64,000 bases of DNA from the NCBI GenBank assembly GCA_964506755.1, contig CAZDMH010000006.1, positions 31,521 to 95,520 on the forward strand. The letters are read 5' to 3'. The DNA comes from an uncultured Spirochaetales bacterium. GTDB lineage: Bacteria > Spirochaetota > Spirochaetia > DAHUYW01. Under the pieces are notes generated by a model, which was given only the letters and a program-made list of their open reading frames with translations, had not been told where the DNA came from and did not search any database. Within the stretch, counting starts at the first letter, position 1, and the number at the start of each line of letters is the position of its first letter. Below, one piece after another: positions 14,691 through 60,438 of the stretch. Position numbers and translations under genes: made by a program.

Positions 14691-14751
14691 CCGGGTGCAT
14701 TATACCACACCTCTCCGGTCGGCGTGAGGACAGGGACGAGTAGAGGTATTT

Positions 14752-17505: not shown

Positions 17506-17509
17506 CTGC

Positions 17510-27989: not shown

Positions 27990-28093
27990 TTTCAATGTAA
28001 TCGCAAAAAAAGGGGGAAGTTGTCGCGGAACTAGGAATCGAACAGTCGTAGGACTGTTTACAACTACATGTTTATTTCAGGAGGTTCCCTATC

Positions 28094-29248: not shown

Positions 29249-29331
29249 CCCTGCCCGACAAAGTTCTCTAGAGGAGGATGCCCCCGGAGCTCACGGGGGC
29301 ATCCTGTTGTACCCTCGCTTGGATATAGCAC

Positions 29332-29841
29332 ATGAAATCCATACCGCGTCGAATATTCGATTTTTTCGAGGTATATCTCCCGTCGGTAGTCTTCTTCGTA
29401 CTCATTGCCTCCGTGTTTGCCGGTGTGCTGTTCCGGTACGTGTTTGACGACCCGATTCCGCAGTTTTTCGAGATCTCGATCTACAGCTTTATATGGGTCA
29501 TTTACTTGGGAGGCGCACTCGCCACACGGTTCAATCAACACATGCGTTTCGATCTGCTGTATCGTAAATTGCCGAAGAACGGACAGCTGCTCGTTGATGT
29601 CGTTTTCGATCTTTTGCTCAATGTGGTCATAGCGATCATCTTCTATCCCACAATCAAACAGGTCATACATATGGCTCCGCTCAAAGCGAGCACTCTCGGC
29701 ATTTCCTGGGCCTATCTGCTGATCTGCTTCCCGATCTTCCTGGTCTTGGTCTTTGCGCACAACAGCATGGCGATGTACTACAAGATCCGAGAGATGACGA
29801 CCGGCAGGAAAGCCGTGGAGGAGATACCACCGTGGCAGTGA
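29332..29841 (+). CDS. dctQ: TRAP transporter small permease (DctQ family)
   Basis: 169 aa with 4 TM helices, between the DctP and DctM genes. Confidence 0.8.
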   Translation: MKSIPRRIFDFFEVYLPSVVFFVLIASVFAGVLFRYVFDDPIPQFFEISIYSFIWVIYLGGALATRFNQHMRFDLLYRKLPKNGQLLVDVVFDLLLNVVIAIIFYPTIKQVIHMAPLKASTLGISWAYLLICFPIFLVLVFAHNSMAMYYKIREMTTGRKAVEEIPPWQ

Positions 29842-31124: not shown

Positions 31125-31135
31125 AGGAGAACTGA

Positions 31136-32365: not shown

Positions 32366-32366
32366 A

Positions 32367-33113
32367 ATGGTGAAAGCCGCAGTAATCATACCTGCCCGAT
32401 ATCACAGCACCCGCTTGGAGGGTAAACCACTTGCTACGATCGGTGGAAAGGCGCTGATTCAGCATGTCTACGAAAACGCAGTCCGGTCGAAGGTTGTCCA
32501 AGAGGTCATCGTTGCGACCGATGACGACCGCATCTACGACTTTGTGAAGGCATTCGGCGGGCGTGTGCGTATGACTGCAAAAGAGCATACGACCGGAACG
32601 GATCGTGTCGCAGAGGTGGCGAGGGACGTGGATGCTTCGATCATCGTAAATGTCCAAGGTGATGAGCCGTTTGTCACCGCGCCCATGATCTCAGAGGCGG
32701 TCCAGCCTCTCATCGATGAATCCGACCTGTCGATGAGCACTCTGATGCACCAGATTACGGAAGACAGGTTCGACGATCCGAACGTTGTCAAGGTCGTAGT
32801 CGACCGGCGTGGGAACGGGATGTATTTTTCTCGATCACTCATCCCCTATCCGCGCACCCGCGAGGGGCTTCGGGTTTTCGAGCATATCGGCGTCTACTGC
32901 TACCGGAAGGATTTCCTGCTGAGGTTCGTCTCGATGCCTCCGTCGCCCCTGGAGATGACAGAAAGTCTGGAGCAGCTCAGGGCCCTCGAGAACGGCTATC
33001 CAATACGGGTCGTAGCCACCGAATCAAAGGACTATGTGCCGCTCAGCATCGATACTCCCGAGGACCTTCATCGAGCCCAGGAGATCTACGGTTCAGGGAG
33101 ACAAGACAGGTAG
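32367..33113 (+). CDS. kdsB: 3-deoxy-manno-octulosonate (Kdo)-type CMP-sugar cytidylyltransferase (KdsB family)
   Basis: 248 aa. IIPARYHSTRLEGKPLATIGGKALIQHVYE and ...VNVQGDEPF... motifs are diagnostic of KdsB/KpsU rather than NeuA-type synthetases. Confidence 0.75.
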   Translation: MVKAAVIIPARYHSTRLEGKPLATIGGKALIQHVYENAVRSKVVQEVIVATDDDRIYDFVKAFGGRVRMTAKEHTTGTDRVAEVARDVDASIIVNVQGDEPFVTAPMISEAVQPLIDESDLSMSTLMHQITEDRFDDPNVVKVVVDRRGNGMYFSRSLIPYPRTREGLRVFEHIGVYCYRKDFLLRFVSMPPSPLEMTESLEQLRALENGYPIRVVATESKDYVPLSIDTPEDLHRAQEIYGSGRQDR

Positions 33114-33286
33114 AAAAGCGGGAAGGAATTCCGGTCGTTTCGGAGCCATTCGGCGGAGTCGTTAACCGTGCGTGACGCGAAATGAAGGTTGCGACATCCT
33201 ATGGACAACGAAAGGATCGAAGGGCAGAATTAGCCGATTTCGACAACGGTACCAAGCTCGAAAAAAACGCTCTCAAAGAGGTTATT

Positions 33287-34219
33287 GTGGCAACGACGAA
33301 ACAAAATATCCGGGGCATAATCCCCGCAACGATCTTCTGCTGCGACGATCGAGGTAAGCTCTCTTCGGAGTTACTCGAACGCCACCTGACTTATCTCATC
33401 GAGGCGGGAGTAGACGGAATCTTCGTCAACGGGACGACCGGCGAAGGCGCCGTTCTCTCCATCGAAGAAAAGACGGAGGTCATGCGGCAGACGGCGAGAA
33501 TAGGCGACGGCAGGGTGCCGCTCTACGGCGTCTGCCTCCAGCCCTCCACCGATGCCGTCGTAGAGGAGATCCGGGTCATGGCGGATCTCGGTGCGTCCTT
33601 TGCGTCAGCCGTGCCTCCCTACTACTATCTTCCTTCTCAGGAAGCGATCATGGTGCACTTCACGCGGATAGCGGACTCGAGTCCTATCCCTGTGATTCTC
33701 TACAACATTCCCCAAAACACGCATTCGCCGATGACGGTCGACACAGTGGTTGCGCTCTCGAAACACCCGAATATCGTCGGGATAAAGGACAGCTCCGGCA
33801 ACTTCGCAGACTTCAATCGCATGCTTCTCGCCACGGATCCGTCGGAGTTTGCATGTGTCCAGGGCGAAGATCTCCTCGATGGGGCTTCCTTTGCGATTGG
33901 TGCCTCCGGCGTCGTGACCGGACTGGGTAACATTCGAATCGAGCATTACATAGAGATGTATCGTGCTTCACAGAGGGGCGATCGCGCCACCATCTTGGGT
34001 CTGCAGAAACGCATCTACGACTTCGCCGAGATTGTCTGGCGGTTGCCCGGCAAGGCGATTCCCGCCATCAAGGCAGGGGCGGAGGTGGTCGGACGCGGGA
34101 ATCGACGAATGCGAGTCGAAGGGCTCACGCTCACGCCTCAGGAGTTCGAGAAGGTCCGGGAGGTCCTGCAAGCTGCCGGTGTGCTCGAACACCGATCCTT
34201 GGGTTCGACGGCCCCTTGA
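33287..34219 (+). CDS. DapA/N-acetylneuraminate-lyase-family class I aldolase (paralog 2)
   Basis: GTG at 33287 with an AAGAGG RBS at 33275-33280. The ORF frame opens at 33182. GIIPATIF...GVDGIFVNGTTGEGAVLS...ILYNIPQNT... is typical of DHDPS/NAL-family lyases. Confidence 0.75.
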   Translation: MATTKQNIRGIIPATIFCCDDRGKLSSELLERHLTYLIEAGVDGIFVNGTTGEGAVLSIEEKTEVMRQTARIGDGRVPLYGVCLQPSTDAVVEEIRVMADLGASFASAVPPYYYLPSQEAIMVHFTRIADSSPIPVILYNIPQNTHSPMTVDTVVALSKHPNIVGIKDSSGNFADFNRMLLATDPSEFACVQGEDLLDGASFAIGASGVVTGLGNIRIEHYIEMYRASQRGDRATILGLQKRIYDFAEIVWRLPGKAIPAIKAGAEVVGRGNRRMRVEGLTLTPQEFEKVREVLQAAGVLEHRSLGSTAP

Positions 34220-47651: not shown

Positions 47652-47679
47652 TTGACAACTAAAATAGTCATGATATACT
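47652..47679 (+). promoter_or_regulatory. sigma70-like promoter TTGACA-16-TATACT upstream of the GntR gene, with an overlapping imperfect inverted repeat (ATGATAT...ATCAT)
   Basis: AT-rich 250-bp intergenic region. A consensus -35 hexamer at 47652-47657 and -10 at 47674-47679. The inverted repeat overlaps the -10 and is a candidate autoregulatory GntR operator. Confidence 0.45.
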
Positions 47680-47716: not shown

Positions 47717-48439
47717 ATGAAAAAGTACTTGCCGGTTCAGAGTGAACGCCTCTATGAACGCATTGTTGAGCAGATTGAAGCAGCCATTGCGGCCGGAGAC
47801 CTGAAAGTCGGCGAGAAACTGCCCCCCGAACGCGAGTTGGCTACACAGTTCGCCGTGAGCCGAACCGCGGTTCGGGAGGCGGTGAAGATCCTTCGCGAGA
47901 AGGGATACATCGATATTCATCCGGGGCGCGGTACCTTTGTCACCAACAAAGCCCCAAACTCAATGCGACAATCTTTCGACCTCCTCATGAAGTTCGGTTC
48001 TGTTGACGGTTCGGCGAATCTCGTGGAGGTGCGCGAAATCCTCGAGCCGGAGATAGCAGGTCTTGCCGCCACGCGGATGACCGACGAGTTCGTCGCCGAC
48101 ATGCAAGAGGCGGTGGAAACGATGGAGAGCGCCGCCGACGTCGATGTTTACGTCGAGGCCGATTTGGACTTTCACCTCGCTCTGGCGGAAGCGACGCAGA
48201 ACCCGATCATTCCCGCGCTCATGGATTCGATCATCGACCTTCTGCGCGAACAGCGCAAGCGCATCGGCCTAGCCGAAGGCGGGCTCGAGCGCGGTCAGCG
48301 TCACCACAAAGAAATCCTGGAGGCGGTGAAGCGAAAAGACTCCGAAGCTGCGCGCTCGGCAATGAAGCGTCATCTGCGGCAGGTTGCGGAGGACTCTGGA
48401 ACGACTGAATCGGACGAAGCACGTAGTAAATCTGACTGA
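47717..48439 (+). CDS. GntR-family (FadR/FCD subfamily) transcriptional regulator
   Basis: N-terminal wHTH (…ERELATQFAVSRTAVREAVKIL…) and C-terminal FCD ligand-binding domain. Confidence 0.85.
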   Translation: MKKYLPVQSERLYERIVEQIEAAIAAGDLKVGEKLPPERELATQFAVSRTAVREAVKILREKGYIDIHPGRGTFVTNKAPNSMRQSFDLLMKFGSVDGSANLVEVREILEPEIAGLAATRMTDEFVADMQEAVETMESAADVDVYVEADLDFHLALAEATQNPIIPALMDSIIDLLREQRKRIGLAEGGLERGQRHHKEILEAVKRKDSEAARSAMKRHLRQVAEDSGTTESDEARSKSD

Positions 48440-48451
48440 CTGGAGTTTCAC

Positions 48452-49333
48452 ATGGCACAATTAGGATTTATCGGCCTTGGCGTGATGGGCCGGGGACTAA
48501 CGAAACGCCTCATGGAGGCCGGGCACACGGTAACCGGCTATAATCGGACTCGTTCGAAGGCCGAGAAGCTGATCGAGCAGGGCATGAAATGGGCGGACAG
48601 TCCACGAGCAGTCGCGGAAGCCTCAGACATCACCTTCAGCATGATCGCAAACACCAAGGCCTTGGAAGCGATCTCCGAAGGTGATGACGGTCTTCTCGCA
48701 GGTCTCTCGCCCGGCAAGATCTACGTCGACATCAGCACCGTGACACCTGAAGCAAGTCGAAGGCTTGCGAAGAAGGTGGCTGAGAAGGGCGCGGCGATGC
48801 TCGATGCGCCGGTATCCGGCAGCGTCTCCACCCTCGAGGCGGGGAAGCTGACGATGATGGTCGGGGGTGACCCTGAGGTGTACGAAAAGGTCAAACCGAT
48901 CTTCCTCGACATCGGTCCGAAAGCTACTCACGTCGGTGCAAACGGCCTTGCGGTAGCGATGAAGATAGCGACGAACCTCAGTCTTGCAGTGCAGATGCTC
49001 GCATTCAGTGAGGGCGTGCTGCTTGCCGAGAAGAGCGGTATCCCGAGGACGACCGCCGTGGAGGTTCTGGTGAACAGCGTCATCGCTTCACCGATGGTGA
49101 AATACCGCGGACCGTTTGTGCTCGAGATGCCGCAGGAAGCCTGGTTCAACGTGAACATGATGCAGAAAGACCTGAACTTCGCATTGGAGCTTGGTCGGGA
49201 GCTCGATGTTCCGCTCCCGACCACTTCGTTGACGAACGAGTTTCTGACCGCCGCGCGCGGCATGGGGCTCGTCAAGCAGGACTTCGCGGTAATGTTCGAG
49301 GTCCTTGCGACTATGTCGGGGCTTGGGAAATGA
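48452..49333 (+). CDS. NAD(P)-dependent 3-hydroxyisobutyrate / 2-hydroxy-3-oxopropionate (tartronate semialdehyde) reductase family dehydrogenase
   Basis: N-terminal GFIGLGVMG Rossmann motif and HIBADH-family catalytic Lys region (…ATNLSLAVQ…). 293 aa. Confidence 0.85.
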   Translation: MAQLGFIGLGVMGRGLTKRLMEAGHTVTGYNRTRSKAEKLIEQGMKWADSPRAVAEASDITFSMIANTKALEAISEGDDGLLAGLSPGKIYVDISTVTPEASRRLAKKVAEKGAAMLDAPVSGSVSTLEAGKLTMMVGGDPEVYEKVKPIFLDIGPKATHVGANGLAVAMKIATNLSLAVQMLAFSEGVLLAEKSGIPRTTAVEVLVNSVIASPMVKYRGPFVLEMPQEAWFNVNMMQKDLNFALELGRELDVPLPTTSLTNEFLTAARGMGLVKQDFAVMFEVLATMSGLGK

Positions 49334-50334
49334 CGAAGCGCACGGAAAGCGGCGTCGTATCCGGCGCCGAATCGGTTGGAGTGGATCATTGGATTCACTG
49401 CTACGAACAGATGGCGAAGATCCGGCACTTTGAGGAGCACGTCAACCAGCTCTACATGAATGCCCTCATGCCCGGCCTGGCACATCTCTATATCGGCCAG
49501 GAAGCGGTTGCAGTCGGCATTTGCGAAGCGCTCCGGCGCGATGACTACATTACAAGCACTCATCGCGGTCATGGTCATTGTCTGGCGAAGGGGGCGGCGG
49601 TAGATCGCATGTTTGCCGAGTTGCTGGGGAAGGAGGCTGGTTATTGTCGGGGCAAAGGCGGCTCGATGCACATAGCTGATCCCGATACCGGAAACCTCGG
49701 TGCAAATGCGATCGTCGGCGGGAGCGCCGGGATTGCCACCGGCGCGGCATTTTCAGCGAAGATGAGGGGAAGCGACCAGGTCGCCGTCTGTTTCTTCGGC
49801 GAGGGAGCGCTCGGTCAAGGCATTATGTACGAGGTCATGAATATGGCGTCGCTGTGGAAGTTGCCCGTCATCTATGTCTGCGAAAACAACCTCTACAATG
49901 AATACACTCATTTTACCGAGACGCTTGCCGGAGACATCATGACGCGGGCGAAGGGGTTCGACCTTCAAGCCGAGTCTATCGAAGGGCAGGATGTCCAGGT
50001 AGTCTACGAGACCGCCAAACGGCTGGTAGCTCGTGCGCGAAAGGGTGAGGGGCCCTCCTTCCTCGAATGTCAGACCTATCGGTACTTCGGTCACCATGTC
50101 GGCGACATCAATAGAGAGTACTACCGCTCAAAAAAAGAAGAGCAGGAGTGGAAATCGAGCCATGATCCGCTCATCATTCTGGAGAACAGGCTGTTGAAAG
50201 AGGAGGACGTGGAAAAGTCGACTCTCGACAAGATACTGAAAGATGTCGAGGCCGAGGTGGAGGCCGGGGTCGTATTCGCGAAGGACACCCCCTACCCGGA
50301 CGAGCGGGAGGTTACCGAAGATGTATACGCCTAA
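49330..50334 (+). CDS. 2-oxoacid dehydrogenase E1 component alpha subunit (TPP-dependent; BCKDH/PDH/acetoin-type)
   Basis: 334 aa. A TPP-binding GDG…N motif region (…FGEGALGQG…N…) and the E1-alpha phosphorylation-loop region. Its start overlaps the upstream stop (ATGA). Confidence 0.85.
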   Translation: MTKRTESGVVSGAESVGVDHWIHCYEQMAKIRHFEEHVNQLYMNALMPGLAHLYIGQEAVAVGICEALRRDDYITSTHRGHGHCLAKGAAVDRMFAELLGKEAGYCRGKGGSMHIADPDTGNLGANAIVGGSAGIATGAAFSAKMRGSDQVAVCFFGEGALGQGIMYEVMNMASLWKLPVIYVCENNLYNEYTHFTETLAGDIMTRAKGFDLQAESIEGQDVQVVYETAKRLVARARKGEGPSFLECQTYRYFGHHVGDINREYYRSKKEEQEWKSSHDPLIILENRLLKEEDVEKSTLDKILKDVEAEVEAGVVFAKDTPYPDEREVTEDVYA

Positions 50335-50346
50335 GAAGGGAAGAAG

Positions 50347-51333
50347 ATGGCTTTGAGGGAAGTGACCTTTGGCGACGCAATCAGAGAGGCGCTCGCGGAA
50401 GAGATGCGCCTCGACGAATCGGTTTTCATAATCGGAGAAGACGTAGCCGAAGCCGGCACTCCGTTCAAGGTGTTGAGCGGGCTGGTCGATGAGTTCGGGA
50501 CAAAACGTGTCGTCGACACCCCGATCTCTGAGCTCGGTTTTTCCGGGATCGGCGTCGGTGCCGCAATGACCGGCGTACGTCCCGTCGTGGATATCATGTT
50601 CGGCGATTTTCTCGGTCTCGCCATGGATCAAATCGCCAACCAGGCCGCAAAGGTTCATTACATGTCCGGCGGAAAGCTCAAGGTTCCGATGGTCTTTCGA
50701 ACGACACTCGGGGCGACCCGTCGCTCGGCCGCCCAGCACTCGCAGAGCCTGCACGCATGGGTGAGTCACATTCCGGGTCTGAAGGTGGCTATCCCCGCCA
50801 CGCCGTACGACGCCAAGGGACTGATGAAGTCGGCGATCCGCGATGACAGTCCCGTCGTCTTCTTCGAAGACAAGATGATGTACAAGCTGAAGGGGGAGAT
50901 TCCGGACGAAGAATATGTCGTACCCTTCGGAAGTGCCGACATCAAGCGCAGCGGAACGGACATCACGTTGGTCGCAACGAGCTCGATGGTGCAGGTCGCA
51001 TTGGGCGCGGCGGCCAAGCTGGAAGGGATCGGAATAAGCGCGGAGGTGGTCGATCCGCGCACGACATCACCCCTGGACAAGGAGACCCTCATCGAGTCGG
51101 CGAAGAAGACCTCACGGGTGGTCGTTCTTGACGAAGGCTACGAGTTCTACGGAGTGACGGCGGAGATAGCGTCGGTCATTGCCGAGGGCGCCTTCTACTA
51201 TTTGGACGCTCCGGTGAAGAGAATGGGGGCTATGGACGTTCCGGTGCCGTTTTCACCGGTCTTGGAGGACATGACCGTCCCCACGGAGGAGTCGGTCTTT
51301 GAAGCGGCCAAATCACTATGCGGGAGAAGTTGA
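50347..51333 (+). CDS. 2-oxoacid dehydrogenase E1 component beta subunit
   Basis: 328 aa. Transketolase-like pyrimidine-binding and C-terminal domains (…EDVAEAGTPFKV…, …VVFFEDKMMY…). Confidence 0.85.
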   Translation: MALREVTFGDAIREALAEEMRLDESVFIIGEDVAEAGTPFKVLSGLVDEFGTKRVVDTPISELGFSGIGVGAAMTGVRPVVDIMFGDFLGLAMDQIANQAAKVHYMSGGKLKVPMVFRTTLGATRRSAAQHSQSLHAWVSHIPGLKVAIPATPYDAKGLMKSAIRDDSPVVFFEDKMMYKLKGEIPDEEYVVPFGSADIKRSGTDITLVATSSMVQVALGAAAKLEGIGISAEVVDPRTTSPLDKETLIESAKKTSRVVVLDEGYEFYGVTAEIASVIAEGAFYYLDAPVKRMGAMDVPVPFSPVLEDMTVPTEESVFEAAKSLCGRS

Positions 51334-51334
51334 G

Positions 51335-52660
51335 ATGGCAATAAAGACATATGGCACGATGGCGGTCGATTGGGAGCAACGAATCGACTTCGATCGACTT
51401 CGCAACGAACGGCTCGATCGGGTAAAGAAGCTCTTGAAAGAATCGGAGATGGGTTCGCTTCTCTGCTTCGACATGAACAATGTGCGGTACATCACTGCGA
51501 CACATATCGGTACGTGGGCCCAGGACAAGGCGAACCGATTTACGCTCCTGGCACAGGGCGACGAGCCGATTCTCTGGGACTTCGGCTCGGCGGCAAAACA
51601 CCATCAGCTCTACGCCCCGTGGCTCGGGGAGAAGCGCTCCCGTGCCGGCATCTCGATGCTGCGAGGGGCCATGACACCAGAGATGGGGCGTGCCGAGGAC
51701 GTAGCGCGCAAGATCAAGCTCGAGCTCGAAGAACGAGGTCTCGCCAAGGAACCGGTCGGAGTCGACATAGCCGAGCTGCCGGTGCTGTTTGCCCTCCAGA
51801 AGGAGGGGTTGACGATTGTCGACGGCCAGGCTCTTCTGTCGGAGGCAAGAGTCATTAAGACGCAGGACGAAATTGCGCTTCTTACCCACGCGGCAGCCCA
51901 GGTCGACGCGGCCTACGACGAGCTCTATCGAGCGATGAAACCGGGTATGCGCGAGAACGAGGCGGTTGGAATCGTCTCGAAGGTGCTGTACGACCTCGGG
52001 TCGGAGTACGTCGAGGCGGTCAATGCGATCTCCGGCGAGCGCTGCAATCCCCATCCTCACGTCTTTTCGGACCGCATGCTCAGGCCTGGCGACCCGGTCT
52101 ACTACGATATCCTTCAGTCCTATATGGGCTACCGCACATGTTACTACCGCTGCTTCTCGGTCGGATACGCCTCACATGCCATGGTAGACGCCTACAAGCG
52201 CTGCCGGGACTACCTGGACGCCGCAATCGAGCTCGTACGTCCGGGACGGACGACAGCGGAAATCGCGTCAGTGTGGCCCAAGGCGGAGGAGTTCGGATTC
52301 CCGAGCGAAGAAGCGGCCTTCGCGCTCCAGTACGGGCACGGCATCGGCCTGCAGATTTGGGAGAAGCCCGTTATCAGCCGTCTCGTATCTTTGGATCATC
52401 CAACCGAGATAAAGCCGGGAATGGTCTTTGCGCTCGAGACCTACTGGCCTTCGACCGACGGATGGAGTGCCGCCAGGATCGAGGAAGAGATCGTCGTCAC
52501 CGAAACCGGGCACGAGATCATAACTCGTTTCCCGGCCAACGATCTGATGGTGGCCGGCCACCACTACTACACTGCGACCGGCCCGCTTCCGACGACGAGA
52601 ACACACGAACCGGACAACAATTCGGAGGTCGTCAAGATGGTGGAGGCCGTGAGAGGCTAA
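51335..52660 (+). CDS. M24-family creatinase/prolidase-like protein (creatinase_N + pita-bread fold) with a partly substituted metal site
   Basis: ATG at 51335, 1 nt after the E1-beta stop, with a GGGAGAAG RBS. The pita-bread C-domain (…HGIGLQIWEKP…, …GMVFALE…, …EEEIVVTE…) is present. Its stop overlaps the E2 start (TAATG). Confidence 0.75.
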   Translation: MAIKTYGTMAVDWEQRIDFDRLRNERLDRVKKLLKESEMGSLLCFDMNNVRYITATHIGTWAQDKANRFTLLAQGDEPILWDFGSAAKHHQLYAPWLGEKRSRAGISMLRGAMTPEMGRAEDVARKIKLELEERGLAKEPVGVDIAELPVLFALQKEGLTIVDGQALLSEARVIKTQDEIALLTHAAAQVDAAYDELYRAMKPGMRENEAVGIVSKVLYDLGSEYVEAVNAISGERCNPHPHVFSDRMLRPGDPVYYDILQSYMGYRTCYYRCFSVGYASHAMVDAYKRCRDYLDAAIELVRPGRTTAEIASVWPKAEEFGFPSEEAAFALQYGHGIGLQIWEKPVISRLVSLDHPTEIKPGMVFALETYWPSTDGWSAARIEEEIVVTETGHEIITRFPANDLMVAGHHYYTATGPLPTTRTHEPDNNSEVVKMVEAVRG

Positions 52661-54141
52661 TGGCTGCCGCCGTCGTAATGCCGGCGCTGGAGATGGCGCA
52701 GGAAACCGGGGTTCTCATCCGTTGGCTCAAGCAAGCGGGAGAGAGCGTCACGAAGGGCGAACCGCTCATGGAGGTCGAAACCGACAAAGCCGCCGTCGAG
52801 ATCGAATCTCCCGGTGAGGGCGTGCTCGGCGGGATCATCGCGAACGAAGGCGACGTCGTTCCGGTCGGAAATACAATCGCCTGGATTCTCTCACCCGGCG
52901 AAGAGCCGCCGAAAGTAGAACCGGCCGCCCAGTCGGGGCGGGCCCGGAGCGGAAGCCCGCTCGGCGACAGCCCGGCTTCCGGAGAGCGCGCTCGCAGCGG
53001 GGGCCGCGATCTGTTGGGCGGTGACGGCCAGTCTCCCAGGATCGGCCGCACAGGCGGCCCTGACACACCGGCCGGAGGGCAGACGGCTCTTTCGTGGGCG
53101 GTGACCCCTTTGGCGCGCAATATCGCCGAGGAAAACGGTGTCGACCTCACGAAAGTCACGCCAACGGGAAATCGAATAGAAAAGGCTGACGTCCTCGCAT
53201 ACATGGGGGAGAGCTCCCCGGGTGGGGCCTTCGCCGCCTCGGGGACCGGCTTTGTGTCGATCGAGGGCGGGTCGACGGCCAAACTTCGACCGGCTTCGCC
53301 GAAGGCGCGCCGGCTGGCAGTCGAGCGGGGCATGGGGCTGGCATCTATCGCGGGCTCCGGACCGGAGGGCGCGGTGCTCGCGGCCGACGTCATATCTGCC
53401 GCCGAGACTCTTTCGAACCGACCGGGCATTCGTCCCGGCCGTGCAGCCGGGGCGGCGGGCATTGAGGAACCGAGCAGCTTGTGGCGCGTGATGGCGGCCC
53501 GCATGAGCGAAAGCTGGAGGACGGTGCCCCATTTCTATCTCGTGCGGGAGGTGGAGGCGAGCCGGCTCCTGGAATGGCGCGATCGCGCCGGCGGCGAGGT
53601 GGAGGATCGCACCGGTACCAGGCTGACGCTGACGGACCTTCTCGTGAAGTGCGCCGGTTGGGCGCTCCGACGGCATCCTCGCGTCAACGCGGCGTGGGCT
53701 GACGGTGCGATCAGGACCGGCGGCGAGGTGAATGTAGGTATCGCGGCGGCGCTCGACGAGGGGCTGGTTGTTCCGGTGATTCGCGGCGCGGATTGGGCGT
53801 CGCTGGTAGAGATCGCCGGACAGCGCAGCGAGTTGCTTTCACGTGCTCGCGAGCGCAAGCTGCGCCCTGAGGACATGGACAACGGGAGCTTCACGATCAC
53901 GAATCTCGGCATGTACAAGGTGGATGCCTTCAACGCGATCGTAAACCCCCCGCAAGCGGCAATCCTGGCGGTTGGAAGGATCGCCGAGAGAGTGGTGCCG
54001 ATCGAGGGAAGGGCGGTGATCCGACCGATGATGGTGATGACCCTTTCCTGCGACCATCGAGTTGTCGACGGTGTGCGGGCGGCGCAGTTTCTCGACGACC
54101 TGGCCCAAACGATAGAGGACCCCTGGAGAATGTTGATATGA
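52660..54141 (+). CDS. 2-oxoacid dehydrogenase E2 (dihydrolipoamide acyltransferase) with one lipoyl domain and two tandem peripheral-subunit-binding-like domains
   Basis: ATG at 52660; the ORF frame opens at 52138. Lipoyl-Lys motif EVETDKAAVEIES. PSBD-like TPLARNIAEENGVDLTKVTPTGNRIEKADV and SPKARRLAVERGMGLASIAGSGPEGAVLAADV. Catalytic SCDHRVVDG. Confidence 0.85.
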   Translation: MAAAVVMPALEMAQETGVLIRWLKQAGESVTKGEPLMEVETDKAAVEIESPGEGVLGGIIANEGDVVPVGNTIAWILSPGEEPPKVEPAAQSGRARSGSPLGDSPASGERARSGGRDLLGGDGQSPRIGRTGGPDTPAGGQTALSWAVTPLARNIAEENGVDLTKVTPTGNRIEKADVLAYMGESSPGGAFAASGTGFVSIEGGSTAKLRPASPKARRLAVERGMGLASIAGSGPEGAVLAADVISAAETLSNRPGIRPGRAAGAAGIEEPSSLWRVMAARMSESWRTVPHFYLVREVEASRLLEWRDRAGGEVEDRTGTRLTLTDLLVKCAGWALRRHPRVNAAWADGAIRTGGEVNVGIAAALDEGLVVPVIRGADWASLVEIAGQRSELLSRARERKLRPEDMDNGSFTITNLGMYKVDAFNAIVNPPQAAILAVGRIAERVVPIEGRAVIRPMMVMTLSCDHRVVDGVRAAQFLDDLAQTIEDPWRMLI

Positions 54142-55631
54142 GTGCACCGGAAAGGCTACGTGGATCACTTGTTGCGAAGGAAAAGAACGGGAGTGGCGAG
54201 AACCCAGCTCTCGGCGATTTCGGCTGCTACCTTGCCGGAGAGTGGAAGAAGACGGGAAACGGCGTCGACGTGCGCAGTCCCTTCGACGGCTCACTCGTCG
54301 CGGTCGTTCATCGGGCAGGAAAGGCCGAAGTCGCGTCGGCGATCGACATTGCCGTGGAGGCGTTTCGGGGGACAAGGAAGCTCCCCGCCTGGAAGAGAGC
54401 GGAGATCCTCGAAAGGACAAGTGCGGGCATCGAGGAGCGTCACGAGGAGCTCGCCCGCACGATTGCGCTCGAGGCGGGCAAGCCGATCAATACTGCGCGC
54501 GCTGAGGTAGGCCGCGCGGTCTTCACTTTCAAGGTAGCCGCGGAGGAATCGAAGCGTATCTACGGCGAGATCGTTCCCCTTGATTGGATTCCCGGCAACG
54601 AAGGGCGGGAAGCGCAGGTGCGCCGCGTCCCCCTCGGACCGGTCGTCGGCATCAGTCCCTTCAACTATCCGCTGAATCTGGTCGCGCACAAGGTGGCGCC
54701 CGCCCTGGCGGCGGGCAACCCCATCATCCTTCGGCCTGCCAGCCAGACTCCGGTGAGCGCACTGAAGCTTGCCGAGATCATCGGCCAATCCGGCTGGCCG
54801 CGCGAGGCCTTCAGCGTACTGCCGAGCTCTACCGCGGACGCCGCTCAGCTGGTCGAAGACGAACGCATCAAGCTTCTGACCTTTACGGGGAGCCCGGCCG
54901 TCGGCTGGGCACTGAAGAGCAGAGCCGGACGAAAGAAGATCACGCTCGAGTTGGGAGGCAACGCCGGGGTGATCGTGCACAGGGACGCCGATGTCAAGTT
55001 TGCCGCCGAGCGGGTGGTGTGGGGCGGATTCTCCTATTCGGGGCAATCCTGTGTTTCAGTCCAACGCGTCTATCTTCACGAAGAGATTTATGAAGACTTC
55101 GTCGCTGAGCTCGTCCCACGGGTAAAGAAGCTGAAAGTGGGTAACCCCCTGGATGAGGAAACTGACGTGGGTCCGGTGATTGATGACCAAGCGGCGGAGC
55201 GGGTTCAAGAATGGGTCGAAGAGGCCGAACGAGACGGCGCAGAGGTTCTCGCCGGCGGGCGTCGAGAGGGCAATATCTGGCGTCCGACCGTGCTGGCGAA
55301 TCTGCAACCGCAGATGCGAGTCTGCTGTCAGGAGGTTTTTGCCCCTTTGATCGGGCTGTATCGGTATACCGACGTGCAGGAGGCCATTCGGGCGGTGGAT
55401 GACAGCGAGTTCGGACTCCAGGCAGGGCTTTTCACGAACGACTGGGGCGTGATCCGATCTGCATTTGACGAGATCGAAGTCGGCGGGCTGATGGTCAACG
55501 ACGTGTCCACTTTCCGGGTCGACCATATGCCCTACGGCGGTGTGAAGCAGTCGGGAACGGGGCGGGAGGGCCTTCGCTACGCAATCGAAGAGATGAGCGA
55601 GATGAAGCTTCTTACGATGAATACGCGCTGA
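54138..55631 (+). CDS. NAD(P)+-dependent aldehyde dehydrogenase
   Basis: 497 aa. ALDH Glu active-site block LELGGNAG and Cys block GQSCVSVQR. Its start overlaps the E2 stop (ATGA). Confidence 0.85.
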   Translation: MSAPERLRGSLVAKEKNGSGENPALGDFGCYLAGEWKKTGNGVDVRSPFDGSLVAVVHRAGKAEVASAIDIAVEAFRGTRKLPAWKRAEILERTSAGIEERHEELARTIALEAGKPINTARAEVGRAVFTFKVAAEESKRIYGEIVPLDWIPGNEGREAQVRRVPLGPVVGISPFNYPLNLVAHKVAPALAAGNPIILRPASQTPVSALKLAEIIGQSGWPREAFSVLPSSTADAAQLVEDERIKLLTFTGSPAVGWALKSRAGRKKITLELGGNAGVIVHRDADVKFAAERVVWGGFSYSGQSCVSVQRVYLHEEIYEDFVAELVPRVKKLKVGNPLDEETDVGPVIDDQAAERVQEWVEEAERDGAEVLAGGRREGNIWRPTVLANLQPQMRVCCQEVFAPLIGLYRYTDVQEAIRAVDDSEFGLQAGLFTNDWGVIRSAFDEIEVGGLMVNDVSTFRVDHMPYGGVKQSGTGREGLRYAIEEMSEMKLLTMNTR

Positions 55632-55731: not shown

Positions 55732-56952
55732 ATGTCAAGAAAGTACGTGATTCTCGTGGCGGTACTCGCCTTCGTATCGGCGACATTCGCCGTGGCATCC
55801 GGGACCAGCGAAAAGACGACAAAAGCCCCAATCACGATCGGCGCGTCGCTTTCTCTGTCCGGAGATTTCTCCTCTGACGGACTGGGGTTCAAACAGGGGT
55901 ACACCCTTTGGGCCGATTACGTGAACTCTCATGGTGGGTTGCTGGGGCGACAGGTCAAGCTCGACATCGTATCCGACGCGAGCAGTCCCGATCAGGTTCA
56001 GACGAACTACCAGAAGCTGATTACCGTCGACAAGGTCGATATCGTCTTTGGTCCGTTCTCGTCGCTGCTCACGAAACCGGCTTCGGTCGTCGCAAACCGC
56101 TACGGCTATGCAATGGTCGAGGGCGCCGGCGGCGGTCCGTCGGTCTTTACTCGGGGTCTCAAGAATGTATTCGACGTGGCTCTTCCTGTCGTCAACGACC
56201 TCGACAGCTACACGAAGTACATCCTCTCCCTACCTGCAAGTGAGCGCCCCAAGACTGCGGCCTATGCAACCGAGGACGATCCATTCACACAACCCCAGAT
56301 CGAACGGGCTCGCAAGCTCCTGGAAGCGGGCGGAGTGAAGACCGTATCGTTCCAGGTCTACCCGTCTGAGACCACCGACTACAATCCGATTGCCGACAAG
56401 ATAATCGCCTCGAAAGCACAGGTAGTCGTGGCCGGCACCTTGCTTCCGGACATCAGCGCTTTCATTCAGCGGTTCATGCAGCAGCACTACAACCCCGAAA
56501 GCGTCGTCGCTACGGCCGGGCCGGACCTCGGCAGCCAGTTCACGAAGGCCGTCGGCGGCTCCGGAAACGCGGAAGGCGTGATGGTCCCGAACGCTTGGTA
56601 CGCCTCACTCGATGCCCCGGGAAATGCTCAGTTCGTCAAAGACTTCATAGCGAAATACGGCGGATCTCCATCCGATATCAATGCTGATGCGGCCGAGGCC
56701 TATTCGGTCGGACAGGTGGTGCAGCAGGCAGTCGAGAAGATCGGAAGTCTCGATAACGCCAAGCTCATCAAAGAGCTTCACTCGGGAGATACCTTCAAGA
56801 GCATCGAGGGCCCTGTCAGGTTCGACGGCCAAGGAAGGAATACCGCCATAAGCGCCTATGTCTTCCAGTGGCAGAACGGCAAATACCTTCCGGTGTATCC
56901 GCAGTCAGTCGCGAAAGCCAAGCCAGAGTTTCCGAAACCGAATTGGCAATAG
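55732..56952 (+). CDS. branched-chain amino acid ABC transporter substrate-binding protein (LivK/LivJ family)
   Basis: 406 aa with a signal peptide and a periplasmic binding protein type I fold (…ITIGASLSLSGDFSSDG…). Confidence 0.85.
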   Translation: MSRKYVILVAVLAFVSATFAVASGTSEKTTKAPITIGASLSLSGDFSSDGLGFKQGYTLWADYVNSHGGLLGRQVKLDIVSDASSPDQVQTNYQKLITVDKVDIVFGPFSSLLTKPASVVANRYGYAMVEGAGGGPSVFTRGLKNVFDVALPVVNDLDSYTKYILSLPASERPKTAAYATEDDPFTQPQIERARKLLEAGGVKTVSFQVYPSETTDYNPIADKIIASKAQVVVAGTLLPDISAFIQRFMQQHYNPESVVATAGPDLGSQFTKAVGGSGNAEGVMVPNAWYASLDAPGNAQFVKDFIAKYGGSPSDINADAAEAYSVGQVVQQAVEKIGSLDNAKLIKELHSGDTFKSIEGPVRFDGQGRNTAISAYVFQWQNGKYLPVYPQSVAKAKPEFPKPNWQ

Positions 56953-57069
56953 GCGATAGACAACAAGACGCAAGGGGGCGGCGATGGTCGCCCCCTTCAT
57001 CAATCGGCCACTACACATAAACTCGGCGGGTAGGGTGTCGCCCACGGCCGAAAAGACGGAGTTCAATAG

Positions 57070-57945
57070 ATGACACTGATACTGGATGCGATCATAACGG
57101 GATTGCTGTCCGGCTCGATTTATGCCCTGATGGCCTCGGGATTGACGTTGATCTTCGGCGTCATGGACATCATCAACGTCGGTCAGGGGGCCCTCGTAAT
57201 TCTCGGGGCCTACATGAGCTTCTTCCTCCAGCAGCAGTTCCATATCGATTTATTCGTCGGCCTGCTCATCACCATGCCGGCAATGTTCTTGCTGGGTCTG
57301 GGATTGGAGGTCGCATTCATACGGCCAATCAAACGCAATCGTACTACACTTTCCATTCTCATCACCTTCGCGATCTCTCTCATTATCGAGGGGGTGCTGT
57401 CACTTCTCTTCACGACGAACCTGGTGCAGATGCATGCATGGTACGTCGACACCTCGCTCAGGATTGGAAAGTTCTACCTGGCGTGGGTCTATCTGTTCGA
57501 TTTCGGCTTGAGCGTTGTTCTTCTCGGCGGGCTCTATTTCATTCTGTATCGAACGAAGTTCGGGTTCGGACTGAGGGCATCCATGCAGAATCGCACGGCT
57601 GCACAGCTGATCGGCATAAACGTCGAGCGAGTCTCGGCAATCACCTTCGGAATCGGCGTTTCACTTGCAGCCGCCGGGGGAATGGCATATGGAGCCACGA
57701 CCACCTTCAATCCCAACAGCCTCTATGACCTCATCTCCCGCCTCCTCGTGATCATCATACTCGGCGGCATGGGAAGCCTGCGTGGGGCGTTGATCGCGGC
57801 CCTCGGGATGCTGGTCATCGAAGACGTTACCTCGGTGGTTTGGTCGCCCGTTTGGGCAAACACCGTGTTCTTCATGCTTCTCGTGGTCGTTCTCGTACTG
57901 AGGCCGCAGGGACTGTTCGGGCAGCTGGAAGGGAGAAAACAATGA
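57070..57945 (+). CDS. livH: branched-chain amino acid ABC transporter permease
   Basis: 291 aa, 8 TM, LivH-type. Confidence 0.85.
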   Translation: MTLILDAIITGLLSGSIYALMASGLTLIFGVMDIINVGQGALVILGAYMSFFLQQQFHIDLFVGLLITMPAMFLLGLGLEVAFIRPIKRNRTTLSILITFAISLIIEGVLSLLFTTNLVQMHAWYVDTSLRIGKFYLAWVYLFDFGLSVVLLGGLYFILYRTKFGFGLRASMQNRTAAQLIGINVERVSAITFGIGVSLAAAGGMAYGATTTFNPNSLYDLISRLLVIIILGGMGSLRGALIAALGMLVIEDVTSVVWSPVWANTVFFMLLVVVLVLRPQGLFGQLEGRKQ

Positions 57946-58985
57946 GAACGATCAAACCTGTCGGGCTCATCGCCCTTCTCGTGATATCGATCGTCTTCCC
58001 GCTGATAATCAAGAGCCCTGCAGTCACCACGGTCGCCTTCTTTACGCTGATCTTTGCGGCCGCCGCAACGGCGTGGAACATCTTCTCGGGATACACCGGG
58101 TACATCGCTTTGGGTCATGCCGCCTACTTCGGGATCGGATCCTATGCAATGGCAATCATGTGCAAGGATTGGGGGCTGCAGGGCGGATATCTACCGTTTC
58201 TGCTCTTGCCCCTGGCCGGAGTAGCTGCGGGGATCTTCGCCGTCCCGATGGGATGGATTGCCCTCCGTACGCGAAAGCACACCTTTGTCGTCGTGACGAT
58301 AGCGATGTTCTTCATCATGCAGCTCATGGCCTTCAACCTTCGAGGGGTAACGAACGGCTCGGTCGGCATGACCCTGCCGATACCGACCAATTGGAGCGGT
58401 GTGTTCTTCAACATCCCGTTTTACTATGTAGCGCTACTTATCCTCCTCATTGCGTTGCTCCACTCCTGGTGGATCCGCCATTCGAAATACGGGCTCGGAC
58501 TGCTCGCGATACGCGACGACGAGGAACGAGCGCTCGGTTTAGGTGTCAATACCGGGCAGTTCAAGCTTTCCGCATTCGTAATCTCGGCGTTTTACGTCGG
58601 CATGATCGGGGCGCTGCACGCCTACTACATCGAGTCGCTCTATCCCGCCTTCGCTTTCGACCCACTGTTCGATCTCGTCGTAGCGTTGATGACGTTCCTC
58701 GGCGGACTCGGCACACTTGCGGGGCCGATTCTCGGCGCGATCATCCTCGAGCCGACCCAGCAGTACTTCACCATGCGATTCAGCCAGAACGGCTATTACT
58801 TGATCATCTACGGTGCCATGTTTCTGGCCATAATTCTCTTCCTCCCGGAAGGCATCCTGCCCACTCTCAGACGCCGACTGGCAAGAACCAACAGCGAGAG
58901 CAGCGGCCTACAAACGAACATACAGAAGGACGAAGAGGCTCCAGCAGCGGAGGCCACGATACATTCGGACGAGGTGAAGCGATGA
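57942..58985 (+). CDS. livM: branched-chain amino acid ABC transporter permease
   Basis: ATG at 57942 overlaps the livH stop (ATGA). LivM-type permease. The ORF frame opens at 57840. Confidence 0.85.
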   Translation: MRTIKPVGLIALLVISIVFPLIIKSPAVTTVAFFTLIFAAAATAWNIFSGYTGYIALGHAAYFGIGSYAMAIMCKDWGLQGGYLPFLLLPLAGVAAGIFAVPMGWIALRTRKHTFVVVTIAMFFIMQLMAFNLRGVTNGSVGMTLPIPTNWSGVFFNIPFYYVALLILLIALLHSWWIRHSKYGLGLLAIRDDEERALGLGVNTGQFKLSAFVISAFYVGMIGALHAYYIESLYPAFAFDPLFDLVVALMTFLGGLGTLAGPILGAIILEPTQQYFTMRFSQNGYYLIIYGAMFLAIILFLPEGILPTLRRRLARTNSESSGLQTNIQKDEEAPAAEATIHSDEVKR

Positions 58986-59713
58986 CACTTCTTGAGGCGA
59001 CAAACGTATCCAAGGCCTTTGGCGGGGTGCGGGCGTTGGATGCCTGTTCGATCACGGTAGAGAAGGGCAGCATGACCGGTCTCATCGGACCGAATGGATC
59101 CGGCAAGACGACTCTGTTCAACGTCATGACCGGCTACGAGACCGTTGACGCAGGAGAGGTTAGGTTCTCCGGAAGGCCCATCCAGAACAGCACTCCGGAT
59201 AGGGTCTTTGCACTCGGCATCGGCCGCACCTTTCAGTTGACTCGGATTTTCCCGCGGTTGACGGTTCTCGAGAACATGCACGTTGCCGTCCAACGGACCG
59301 GATTCAAGGCGCTCTTTGGAAGGTGGACCTCCTCAAAAGAGCATCAGAGGGCTCTGGATTTATTGGATTTCGTCGGGATCATCGGTTTGAAGGACCTCCC
59401 GGCCGGGAATCTCTCCTACGGCCAGAAGAAGCTCCTCGAGTTTGCCTACATTCTCATCGCGGAGCCGCAAGTCATCCTGCTCGACGAGCCGGCAGGGGGG
59501 GTAAATCCTACGATGATAAGCTATCTGTCGGACCGCATTCGCGATCTCAACAAGAAGGGCGTCACCTTCCTCATCGTGGAGCACAACATGGAATTCGTCA
59601 TGAGCATCTGCGAAAAGGTCACGGTAATGGACCACGGTTCCAAGATAGCAGAGGGCACCCCGGACGAGGTGCGTGACAATCCAAGCGTTCTCGAAGCCTA
59701 CCTAGGAGCCTGA
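58982..59713 (+). CDS. livG: branched-chain amino acid ABC transporter ATP-binding protein
   Basis: ATG at 58982 overlaps the livM stop. Walker A GPNGSGKTT, signature YGQKKLLE, Walker B ILLDEPAGGV. A long run-on ORF from 58073 in the same frame is not coding upstream of 58982. Confidence 0.9.
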   Translation: MTLLEATNVSKAFGGVRALDACSITVEKGSMTGLIGPNGSGKTTLFNVMTGYETVDAGEVRFSGRPIQNSTPDRVFALGIGRTFQLTRIFPRLTVLENMHVAVQRTGFKALFGRWTSSKEHQRALDLLDFVGIIGLKDLPAGNLSYGQKKLLEFAYILIAEPQVILLDEPAGGVNPTMISYLSDRIRDLNKKGVTFLIVEHNMEFVMSICEKVTVMDHGSKIAEGTPDEVRDNPSVLEAYLGA

Positions 59714-59715
59714 AG

Positions 59716-60438
59716 ATGTTGTTGAAATTGAACGAGGTTGTCGCAGGATACGACGGCAGTGACGTTTTGAAGGGAGTAAACATCGAGGTCGAGAAAGGTT
59801 CGATTACCTGCATCGTCGGTCCAAATGGGGCCGGAAAGTCAACCGTCCTGCGTGTTATCAGCGGATTGCTCAAACCTCGCAAGGGCGAAGTGACGTTCAA
59901 GGACCGCGGAATAGCCGGCTCGAATCCACGCCAGATTCTTTCGTTTGGAATTGCCCAGGTCCCTCAGAATCATAGCCTGTTCCCCGATATAAACGTTCGG
60001 GAGAATGTGAGGATGGGGGGATACATGGTGAGCGATTCCGCGCTCGTCGAGGAGCGACTTGCGAGAGTCGAAGAGCTTTTCCCTGTGGTGCGCGAGCGAG
60101 CGAAAGACAGGGCGGGCAGCCTTTCCGGCGGACAGCAGCGACTCGTCGAGTTTGCACGGTCGTTGATGCTCGATCCAGACCTCATTCTGCTCGATGAGCC
60201 GTCGATGGGGCTCGATCCCAAGACCCTCAAGCAGGTGTTCGAAACCGTAAAGATGATGCACAATACAGGACGTACGATCCTGCTCGTTGAACAGAACGTG
60301 CGGGCCGGTCTCGAGATCGCCACGCAAGGTATCGTCATGGAAAGCGGAAAGGTCCGTCTGGTGGGCACCCACCAAGAAATACTCGATAATCCGCAGATTG
60401 CGAACCTTTACCTGGGAGGTACGCTGTCTCGAAACTGA
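59716..60438 (+). CDS. livF: branched-chain amino acid ABC transporter ATP-binding protein
   Basis: Walker A GPNGAGKST, signature LSGGQQRL, Walker B ILLDEPSMGL. 240 aa. Confidence 0.9.
   Translation: MLLKLNEVVAGYDGSDVLKGVNIEVEKGSITCIVGPNGAGKSTVLRVISGLLKPRKGEVTFKDRGIAGSNPRQILSFGIAQVPQNHSLFPDINVRENVRMGGYMVSDSALVEERLARVEELFPVVRERAKDRAGSLSGGQQRLVEFARSLMLDPDLILLDEPSMGLDPKTLKQVFETVKMMHNTGRTILLVEQNVRAGLEIATQGIVMESGKVRLVGTHQEILDNPQIANLYLGGTLSRN

Follow-up and report, generated by a model that had tools for sequence, protein, structure and literature searches.

We analysed a 64,000-nucleotide (nt) stretch from an uncultured Spirochaetales bacterium (contig CAZDMH010000006.1, positions 31,521 to 95,520; hereafter the window), in which a gene for an M24 'pita-bread' protein of 441 amino acids (aa; 51335-52660, plus strand) is wedged between the E1-beta and E2 genes of a 2-oxoacid dehydrogenase operon. 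The analysis showed a new subfamily of non-peptidase M24 enzymes, encoded in or beside 2-oxoacid dehydrogenase operons, in which the metal-bridging aspartate is replaced by a cysteine (the Cys-site subfamily). The structure of the gene, the fold and the pattern of residues of its product, their conservation and the co-occurrence of genes across phyla were observed directly. We favour, at a probability of about 0.45, the reading that the members of this uncharacterised subfamily would be metal-dependent hydrolases or lyases acting on a small imported polar carboxylate and that they would define a catabolic module.

Gene structure, family and metal site of the M24 protein

The E1-beta gene ends with the stop codon TGA at 51331-51333, and a single spacer base (G, 51334) separates it from the ATG of the M24 gene at 51335, directly 5' of which lies GGGAGAAG with a GGGAG-type ribosome-binding site. 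The M24 stop codon TAA (52658-52660) has its last A in common with the ATG of the E2 gene (52660-52662), forming the TAATG fusion in GGCTAATGGCT. The open-reading-frame list offers an alternative in-frame TTG at 51299, upstream of the M24 ATG. The best-ranked homologues align with the query from end to end and nearly all of them are 440-441 or 449-450 aa long, and because of these lengths and this full coverage the ATG at 51335 is favoured. The gene of the GntR regulator ends 12 nt before the next one, and the junctions that follow, up to the gene of the aldehyde dehydrogenase (ALDH), are an ATGA overlap, gaps of 12 nt and then 1 nt, the TAATG fusion and a second ATGA overlap. The preliminary description of this DNA had reported the 1-nt spacer and the fused stop and start, as we read them, and had called the gene inserted. 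It does lie between the E1-beta and E2 genes, but its guanine-plus-cytosine (GC) content (59.6%) matches that of the operon (60.5%), and the position is therefore an old arrangement that bears no sign of recent insertion.

The reading frame of the E2 gene is open for a further 522 nt 5' of the ATG at 52660 (52138-52659, plus strand; open reading frame 52138-54141), where it overlaps the 3' part of the M24 gene in another frame. The tblastn matches of E2 in related loci start a few bases past the M24 stop, which favours the ATG at 52660, and the open stretch is probably an accident of high GC content. The M24 protein ends with a 38-residue tail (residues 404-441, encoded at 52544-52657) that carries a short helix at its end and is mostly of low model confidence at residues 411-436. 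The Rhodococcus and Paenarthrobacter homologues also have this tail, which most other relatives lack. Its use as a device for docking to E1 was considered and rejected, the tail being found in the Rhodococcus copy, which has no E1 nearby, and missing from E1-linked copies of other clades.

The protein matched Pfam family PF00557 at residues 182-390 with 127.6 bits, the gathering score being 23, while Creatinase_N stayed below Pfam significance. Of the creatinase_N plus pita-bread build proposed earlier, the second part was thus recovered by Pfam and the first was not, the N-terminal domain becoming visible through the alignment to DddP and the AlphaFold2 model. The best NCBIfam model was that of DddP (NF043017), matched from end to end with 124 bits (E 7e-36) against a cut-off of 600. 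The models of Xaa-Pro peptidases scored far under their cut-offs (PepQ_Arch, 74.7 against 630 bits; PRK09795, YpdF-type, 59 against 393; PRK10879, PepP, 42.2 against 465), as did those of DoeA/EutD (TIGR02993, 67.5 against 613; NF038259, 61.6 against 575). The search of PDB sequences returned two DddP proteins at the top, with E values of 6e-24 (over residues 15-403) and 1.6e-21, and weak matches to creatinase (7YTO, E 2.4e-7; 1CHM, E 1.7e-4). The AlphaFold2 model had a pLDDT of 88.5 and its Foldseek matches were all M24 structures, DddP being first (TM 0.77) and prolidases, creatinase and DoeA following. Among the M24 proteins of two-domain build, these comparisons make it a sister of DddP, and neither a DddP, a peptidase nor an ectoine hydrolase. 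The earlier view that it is no ordinary Xaa-Pro peptidase agrees with the scores, none of which allows a confident placement among the Xaa-Pro aminopeptidases. Creatinase, by contrast, gave way to DddP as the nearest kin in models, PDB sequences and fold. Public records label the homologues 'Xaa-Pro peptidase family protein'.

DddP (4RZY, 4S00, 4B28) and the M24 protein have the same two-domain build and share the R-Y motif of the N-terminal domain, the Arg that follows the second ligand motif, and the first Asp, the His and the two Glu of the metal site. Their identity is, however, only about 22%, and DddP belongs to marine degraders of dimethylsulfoniopropionate (DMSP) and stands with acrylate genes, whereas the M24 hosts come from soil, peat and groundwater and the gene stands with a 2-oxoacid dehydrogenase. 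The M24B peptidases (PepQ, PepP, YpdF) have in common with the M24 protein the pita-bread domain, a creatinase-type N-terminal domain and four of the five metal ligands, and with most Cys-site relatives outside the window clade the retained 'HE' His. They differ from it in that the bridging Asp is Cys throughout the family, in the scores (42-75 bits against cut-offs of 393-630) and in the partners, which are dehydrogenases in place of any conserved peptide-transporter or peptidase context. Creatinase and DoeA/EutD share the fold (TM 0.68-0.71) and provide a precedent for its use in cleaving small zwitterionic carboxylates and not peptides; they differ in their weak sequence similarity and in that the M24 family keeps its metal ligands, and the deacetylase and transaminase partners of DoeA are lacking in the M24 module.

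The ligand positions were mapped by phmmer alignment to DddP, by an ungapped match to the motifs of Escherichia coli methionine aminopeptidase (MetAP) and by family alignments. They are D258 (YYD), C269 (RTCYY), H335 (GHGIG), E368 (ALE) and E383 (RIEEE), with W342 at the place of the 'HE' His that follows GHGxG. In MetAP numbering, D258, C269, H335, W342, E368 and E383 correspond to D97, D108 (the metal-bridging Asp), H171, H178, E204 and E235, respectively. Four of the five canonical ligands are thus kept and the second, bridging Asp is Cys269 in the alignments, while the canonical His is Trp342. The same residues had been picked out by eye in the preliminary description, and the alignments to DddP and within the family agree with that choice. 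In DddP, the ligands are Asp295, Asp297, Asp307, His371, Glu406 and Glu421, and Tyr366 and Asp377 are invariant catalytic candidates (PMC4108388). Comparison with the M24 protein showed that D297, D307 and the proposed base D377 are replaced by Leu260, Cys269 and Trp342, respectively, so that the residues that define DddP are incomplete, while D295, H371, E406 and E421 are kept; the position of Tyr366 is ambiguous because of gaps.

None of the six mapped residues (D258, C269, H335, W342, E368 and E383) varies among 81 sequences of the window clade, across which 248 of the 441 positions do not vary. More distant sequences were compared as a set of 25 full-length representatives with identities of 33-69%. 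Down to 35% identity the motif G-Y-x-T-C-Y-Y-R hardly changes, with Y266, C269, Y271 and R272 present in at least 90% of these representatives, in which E368 and E383 are invariant and H335 nearly so. A wider alignment took in 66 sequences, namely 59 from metagenome relatives and 7 references, whose identity to the window protein, where measured, was 33-63%; the position of Trp342 is a His in 60 of them and a Tyr in two haloarchaeal copies. The change of Asp to Cys therefore defines the family, and Trp342 is a feature of the window clade. Because four ligands and a metal-competent Cys stay invariant, the site would be a retained, modified metal centre and not a decayed or metal-free one. The comparison with metal-independent creatinases made at the outset was right in that the site departs from the canonical centre, but its implication of metal-independence does not sit with this invariance.

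Conservation of the operon and spread of the module

The protein search returned at least 8000 proteins at E ≤ 1e-10, the top ones being 86-92% identical and from Anaerolineales-type sources, and the search of representatives (one per 50%-identity cluster) returned 626 at E ≤ 1e-30. The genome scan confirmed at least 589 stretches. The figures for synteny that follow refer to the best 80 of these genome loci, which come from Chloroflexota and, within Acidobacteriota, from Terriglobales (including Candidatus Sulfotelmatobacter) and Vicinamibacterales. The order GntR, dehydrogenase of the 3-hydroxyisobutyrate dehydrogenase (HIBADH) family, E1-alpha, E1-beta, M24, E2 was present wherever the contig reaches, with GntR found in nearly all of the loci in which its place was reached. 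The M24 protein is the slowest-evolving of the operon in the 80 loci, its identity being 82-92%, compared with 76-83% for E1-beta, 56-75% for E1-alpha, 64-77% for the HIBADH-like protein and about 37-55% for E2. The place after E2 that an ALDH gene occupies in the window is also filled by one in a further locus (L069, 66% identity).

Uptake genes vary among these loci. Those of Chloroflexota carry a Liv-type ABC transporter, the genes for the substrate-binding protein (SBP) and LivH following E2 in six of seven, while those of Terriglobales carry an APC permease and that of Vicinamibacterales a DAACS symporter. In Terriglobales, at 40 of the 80 loci, the minus strand carries, about 4 kb 5' of GntR, a divergent gene for a TonB-dependent receptor-like protein of about 1200 aa, identified by reading the sequences by eye, which hints at uptake of the substrate or a precursor across the outer membrane. 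An FrsA-like alpha/beta hydrolase (PF06500), which may be an accessory esterase of the pathway, is encoded near M24 in five Terriglobales loci (L009, L019, L027, L044 and L063) and also in seven unrelated metagenome contigs (L110, L113, L127, L139, L167, L171 and L178).

Beyond these relatives, tblastn against annotated plasmids and secondary replicons found M24 homologues at 33-63% identity. The Rhodobacterales plasmids (Phaeobacter, Tritonibacter, Pacificitalea and Marinovum) encode a MarR-SBP regulator, a short-chain dehydrogenase/reductase, M24, E1-alpha, E1-beta, a lipoyl protein, an ALDH resembling succinic semialdehyde dehydrogenase (SSADH), an E2 catalytic domain and LpdA, with genes for a CUT2 sugar ABC transporter and a HIBADH-like protein beside the cluster. 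Their E1-alpha and E1-beta are 60% and 71% identical, respectively, to those of the window, the latter figure being for the copy on the Phaeobacter plasmid. A Streptomyces plasmid carries LacI, HIBADH-like, M24, ALDH, VOC, fused E1-alpha-beta and E2 genes, and a Paenarthrobacter plasmid carries the same set without the ALDH and with a Liv-type transporter. In Haloferax mediterranei, M24 adjoins E1-beta and E1-alpha on a replicon on which an SSADH gene lies further along, and in the H. volcanii cluster a thiamine pyrophosphate (TPP) enzyme resembling acetolactate synthase takes the place of E1. A scan of metagenomes with the family profile gave 80 further loci, 20 of which have at least 3 kb on both sides. 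Within 8 kb of M24, these 20 hold genes for HIBADH-like proteins in 13, E1 in 12, E2 in 8 and ALDH in 5, the HIBADH-like gene being the most frequent neighbour of the metagenome homologues and often adjacent or overlapping.

The functional tie to the 2-oxoacid dehydrogenase that the preliminary description had proposed is thus borne out by synteny in 80 of 80 loci, none of which lacks the gene order where its contig reaches, and by recurrence in Rhodobacterales, Streptomyces, Haloferax mediterranei and metagenome contigs. The partners found around M24 are of the same classes but not all orthologous: the E1 proteins of Streptomyces and Haloferax are only 26-41% identical to that of the window, and the ALDHs of the clusters fall into three subfamilies with 31-39% mutual identity. 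The ALDH that partners M24 in Terriglobales nearly reaches the SSADH-type model PRK09406 (698.6 against 730). These classes have been recruited repeatedly and independently around a constant M24, and no other observation speaks as strongly for M24 as the member that defines the pathway.

Several observations on the wider loci are given for completeness. A VOC (glyoxalase-fold) protein with 55-60% identity between loci is encoded near M24 in L081, L084, L096/L097, L098, L105, L107, L111, L114, L117 and L123, and in several loci its gene adjoins one for a fused E1 alpha-beta; those with annotation are actinobacterial plasmids. A 42%-identical M24 gene from a JGI metagenome lies, in the stretch 912-4294 of L089, between a GFO/IDH/MocA oxidoreductase gene and an Iso_dh-family gene, with a sulfatase gene adjoining, in an arrangement unlike that of the E1-linked clusters. 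A 43%-identical SBP is encoded near a distant M24 homologue (L108). Some cluster representatives seem to have M24 fused to E1, HIBADH or enoyl-CoA hydratase; these look like gene calls that ran on, add nothing to what the neighbourhoods show and were set aside. The cluster was absent from the first 50 kb of pPGA1_78 of Phaeobacter inhibens DSM 17395, a strain with public fitness data that was not among the strong matches listed. A published study of sulfonamide in Paenarthrobacter deals with plasmids other than the one found here, and full-text literature searches returned no paper describing the module.

The operon and other features of the window

The operon lies on the plus strand. A candidate sigma-70-like promoter (47652-47679; TTGACA-16-TATACT with 11 of 12 matches to the consensus and a TG extension), predicted from the consensus match only, stands 38 nt 5' of the ATG of the regulator gene. 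The regulator (47717-48439) is of the GntR/FCD family (Pfam GntR and FCD), and its best NCBIfam matches, NanR, LldR and PdhR, which we take to be sensors of sialic acid, lactate and pyruvate, respectively, are all under cut-off. The HIBADH-family beta-hydroxyacid dehydrogenase (48452-49333; Pfam NAD_binding_2 and NAD_binding_11) had as its best NCBIfam model tartronate-semialdehyde reductase (209 bits against a cut-off of 340.75) and as its best PDB sequence matches 3PEF and 3PDU, presumably the succinic-semialdehyde or glyoxylate reductases of Geobacter. Its stop overlaps the start of the E1-alpha gene (ATGA).

The E1-alpha protein (49330-50334; Pfam E1_dh, 242.5 bits) resembles that of pyruvate dehydrogenase (PDH), scoring 347.2 against the cut-off of 393.85 of TIGR03182 and finding its best PDB match in human PDH E1-alpha (E 1e-58). 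The E1-beta protein (50347-51333; Pfam Transket_pyr and Transketolase_C) exceeded the subfamily cut-off of PRK09212 (410.8 against 321) and fell short of the equivalog cut-off of PRK11892 (412.5 against 454). The E2 acyltransferase (52660-54141) has a lipoyl domain, two E3-binding domains and a catalytic domain (Pfam Biotin_lipoyl, E3_binding twice and 2-oxoacid_dh), and its translation contains the lipoyl-lysine motif ETDKA and the catalytic motif DHRVVDG; it scored 323.1 against the 445 of TIGR01349. The general features of a 2-oxoacid dehydrogenase complex are therefore present (TPP domains in E1, and lipoyl-Lys, subunit-binding domain and catalytic His motif in E2), while E1-alpha, E1-beta and E2 all lie under the PDH equivalog cut-offs, and no E3 gene was found within the window. 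Like PDH and acetoin operons, that of the window encodes a heterotetramer-type E1-alpha and E1-beta and a lipoylated E2 with DHRxxDG, and acetoin-type systems are similar in joining E1/E2 to an alcohol dehydrogenase and releasing an aldehyde. Unlike them, the window operon has an extra enzyme gene inside the E1-E2 block and does not reach the equivalog cut-offs, and in Rhodobacterales the Cys-site cluster is plasmid-borne and accessory. The AcoC model PRK14875 matched only the N-terminal lipoyl region of E2 (83.9 against 307), and neither an AcoA nor an AcoB model was among the matches.

The start of the ALDH gene (54138-55631; Pfam Aldedh, 497 bits) overlaps the E2 stop (ATGA). The best PDB match of the protein was ALDH21 (5MZ5, 451 bits), which we take to have been characterised as a succinic semialdehyde dehydrogenase, and the protein is described as ALDH21/SSADH-like, although the SSADH equivalog TIGR01780 was not reached (352 against 646). 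A Liv-type (HAAT) ABC transporter follows (55732-60438), consisting of an SBP (55732-56952; Pfam Peripla_BP_6, 190 bits), LivH (57070-57945), LivM (57942-58985), LivG (58982-59713) and LivF (59716-60438).

A creatininase-family gene (PF02633, 230.7 bits) had been reported elsewhere in the window. The gene is present, with the correction that it does not start at 400 and runs from a GTG at 376 to 1155 on the plus strand. Between this gene and the operon lie 46 kb with over 30 unrelated genes, among which are those for a helicase, SpoIID, Usp, Nramp, repeat proteins and transporters; M24 is about 50 kb away, and a link between the two was rejected, none being seen in the window. Also on the plus strand, the stretch 27240-34219 encodes an IclR regulator, the TRAP transporter proteins DctP and DctM, an unassigned protein of 409 aa, a CMP-sugar synthetase-type cytidylyltransferase and a DHDPS/NAL-family lyase, and looks like a utilisation cluster of the sialic-acid or nonulosonate type. 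Two adjoining genes on the minus strand (11475-17664) encode very large repeat proteins of 1071 aa (WD40 and TPR) and 970 aa (12 LVIVD repeats).

Proposed pathway, alternatives and implications

The type of catalysis, the retention of metal, the identity of the intermediates and the order of steps are what we infer from these observations. The metal centre of the M24 enzyme would contain one or two metals, with the thiolate of Cys269 among the ligands, and the substrate of the enzyme may be an amino acid, a hydroxy acid or a sugar acid. Its partners in the module would be the HIBADH-like enzyme, as the tightest of them, the PDH-like E1-alpha-beta/E2, the SSADH-like ALDH, a regulator (FCD-GntR in the window and LacI elsewhere) and a transporter that varies with the lineage. 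M24 and the HIBADH-like enzyme would act on the imported compound one after the other, in either order. One product would be a 2-oxoacid, probably pyruvate or a compound much like it, which the dedicated complex would convert into an acyl-CoA. The other would be a short aldehyde-acid, a semialdehyde like that of succinate, tartronate or malonate, which the ALDH or the HIBADH-like enzyme would clear. A short pathway to a pyruvate-like 2-oxoacid and an aldehyde-acid is proposed because of the matches of the ALDH, the HIBADH-like protein, the regulator and E1/E2 to their models.

Several points weigh against this reading of M24 as a metal-dependent enzyme that defines a catabolic module. The chemistry proposed for the family draws wholly on genomic context, and Cys269 could instead be the nucleophile of a metal-free mechanism. 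The best NCBIfam match of the window ALDH is a lactaldehyde dehydrogenase model (475 bits) and not SSADH, which makes it the exception among the five ALDHs scanned, SSADH models being the best for the other four. The transporter types differ by lineage (Liv-type ABC, APC, DAACS, CUT2, TctC and TonB receptor), so that different clades may use different substrates. The coupling to a 2-oxoacid dehydrogenase is frequent and not obligatory, because the copy on a Rhodococcus plasmid has no E1, E2, HIBADH or ALDH gene in the flanks examined and six contigs hold only M24, a HIBADH-like gene and TctC, with no E1 in the available flanks. To judge from these minimal clusters, the 2-oxoacid may be used by housekeeping enzymes as well. 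The catalytic-type residues are kept in these E1-less copies (Rhodococcus and the M24-HIBADH-TctC contigs), and an autonomous enzyme is therefore favoured.

One ordering within the same general model, which we consider possible but unlikely, places M24 between two dehydrogenases: the HIBADH-like enzyme would oxidise a beta-hydroxy acid taken up by the cell, the product being a labile beta-oxo acid or a semialdehyde, and the metal site of M24 would decarboxylate, isomerise or hydrolyse this product to the 2-oxoacid of E1, as from tartronate semialdehyde to hydroxypyruvate or from a substituted oxaloacetate to a 2-oxoacid. The fixed order HIBADH, E1, M24, E2 is consistent with such a sequence, as are the HIBADH-like gene as the commonest immediate neighbour of M24, often overlapping it, the best match of the window and Streptomyces HIBADH-like proteins to the tartronate semialdehyde reductase model and the di- or tricarboxylate-type transporters (SDF, TctC) of several clades. 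All HIBADH scores are, however, under the equivalog cut-offs, the amino-acid- and sugar-type transporters of other clades do not fit a dicarboxylate, and we know of no decarboxylase or ketol isomerase with the M24 fold. A creatinase-like hydrolase of an amidino or ureido compound or of an N-substituted amino acid, whose product would reach the complex after deamination, seems rather improbable to us. The fold is common to creatinase and ectoine hydrolase, an SSADH-like ALDH also stands beside the M24 hydrolase in the ectoine (DoeA) catabolic clusters, transporters of amino-acid type are found in Chloroflexota, Acidobacteriota and Haloferax, and genes for hydantoinase A/B flank the H. volcanii homologue while the Paenarthrobacter cluster contains an amidase and RidA. 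This has to be set against the lack of any urease, ureohydrolase, deacetylase or transaminase that recurs in the core module, the weak similarity to creatinase (E 2e-7 to 2e-4) and to DoeA (67.5 bits where 613 are needed), the unlinked creatininase gene and the retained M24 ligands, which differ from what we take to be the metal-free site of creatinase. We are doubtful, too, of a DddP-like beta-elimination lyase that would act on an onium compound other than DMSP or on a sulfonate (a sulfonium or ammonium 2-oxo or 2-hydroxy acid, or 3-sulfolactate) and release pyruvate or an unsaturated 2-oxoacid to E1. DddP is the closest family in sequence and fold, the N-domain R-Y motif and the Arg after the ligand motif are common to both, and the close link with E1/E2 would be fitting if the product is reactive; a luciferase-like (LLM) monooxygenase, a flavin reductase and NMT1-like binding proteins are encoded near some homologues, and a TauE/SafE sulfite-exporter gene lies about 5 kb past the Pacificitalea cluster. 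The core operon, however, has neither a sulfite exporter nor a sulfite dehydrogenase, the carriers are mostly organisms of groundwater, soil and peat, and the DddP-invariant Asp297, Asp307 and Asp377 are Leu, Cys, and Trp or His, respectively (PMC4108388).

A pathway of the pantothenate type strikes us as very unlikely. M24 would be the orphan pantothenase, hydrolysing the amide to pantoate and beta-alanine, the HIBADH-like enzyme pantoate 4-dehydrogenase and the ALDH 4-dehydropantoate dehydrogenase, and an oxidative decarboxylation would lead to 2-oxoisovalerate for E1/E2. To our knowledge, this is the only pathway that places an amidohydrolase, hydroxy-acid and aldehyde-acid dehydrogenases and a 2-oxoacid complex in series. 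The pantothenase protein is moreover still unidentified (PMC10393543), a distant M24 homologue stands beside a gene of the Iso_dh family, the family expected for dimethylmalate dehydrogenase, and the window transporter resembles Leu/Ile/Val-binding proteins. None of the E1-linked loci, however, has an Iso_dh gene, E1 is PDH-like and not like the branched-chain 2-oxoacid dehydrogenase, a trace vitamin seems an unlikely reason for a widespread and highly conserved operon, and the agreement is at the level of enzyme classes only. We give as little credence to M24 as a subunit of the dehydrogenase complex that has a structural or regulatory role and no catalytic one, or as an ordinary Xaa-Pro peptidase that happens to be co-transcribed. 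The translational coupling of the gene between E1-beta and E2, its product being the most conserved of the operon and the Pro/Ala-rich linkers of E2 would suit these roles, whereas the active-site-type residues are invariant even in copies without E1 in the stretch examined, the peptidase models score far under cut-off and the bridging Asp is missing. It is also conceivable, though improbable, that the Cys-site M24 is a catalytic fourth component that sits on E1/E2, makes a labile or toxic 2-oxoacid in situ and hands it to E1. If true, this would be a new 2-oxoacid dehydrogenase architecture built around a thiolate-containing variant of the pita-bread metal centre.

The module occurs in at least several hundred species-level genomes of phyla that are abundant in soil, peat and groundwater. 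It spans at least five phyla, and it is also found in marine Rhodobacterales, actinomycetes and haloarchaea, its signature enzyme being annotated everywhere as a generic 'Xaa-Pro peptidase'. Because the family matches the DddP model with an E value of 7e-36 without having the residues that define DddP, surveys with loose thresholds could miscount it as DddP in terrestrial metagenomes, especially those of soil and peat. The assignment of a substrate would add a reaction to the few known for pita-bread enzymes that are not peptidases (creatinase, DoeA and DddP) and would explain the dedicated PDH-like complex, and the module could reveal a carbon source common to Acidobacteriota and Anaerolineae.

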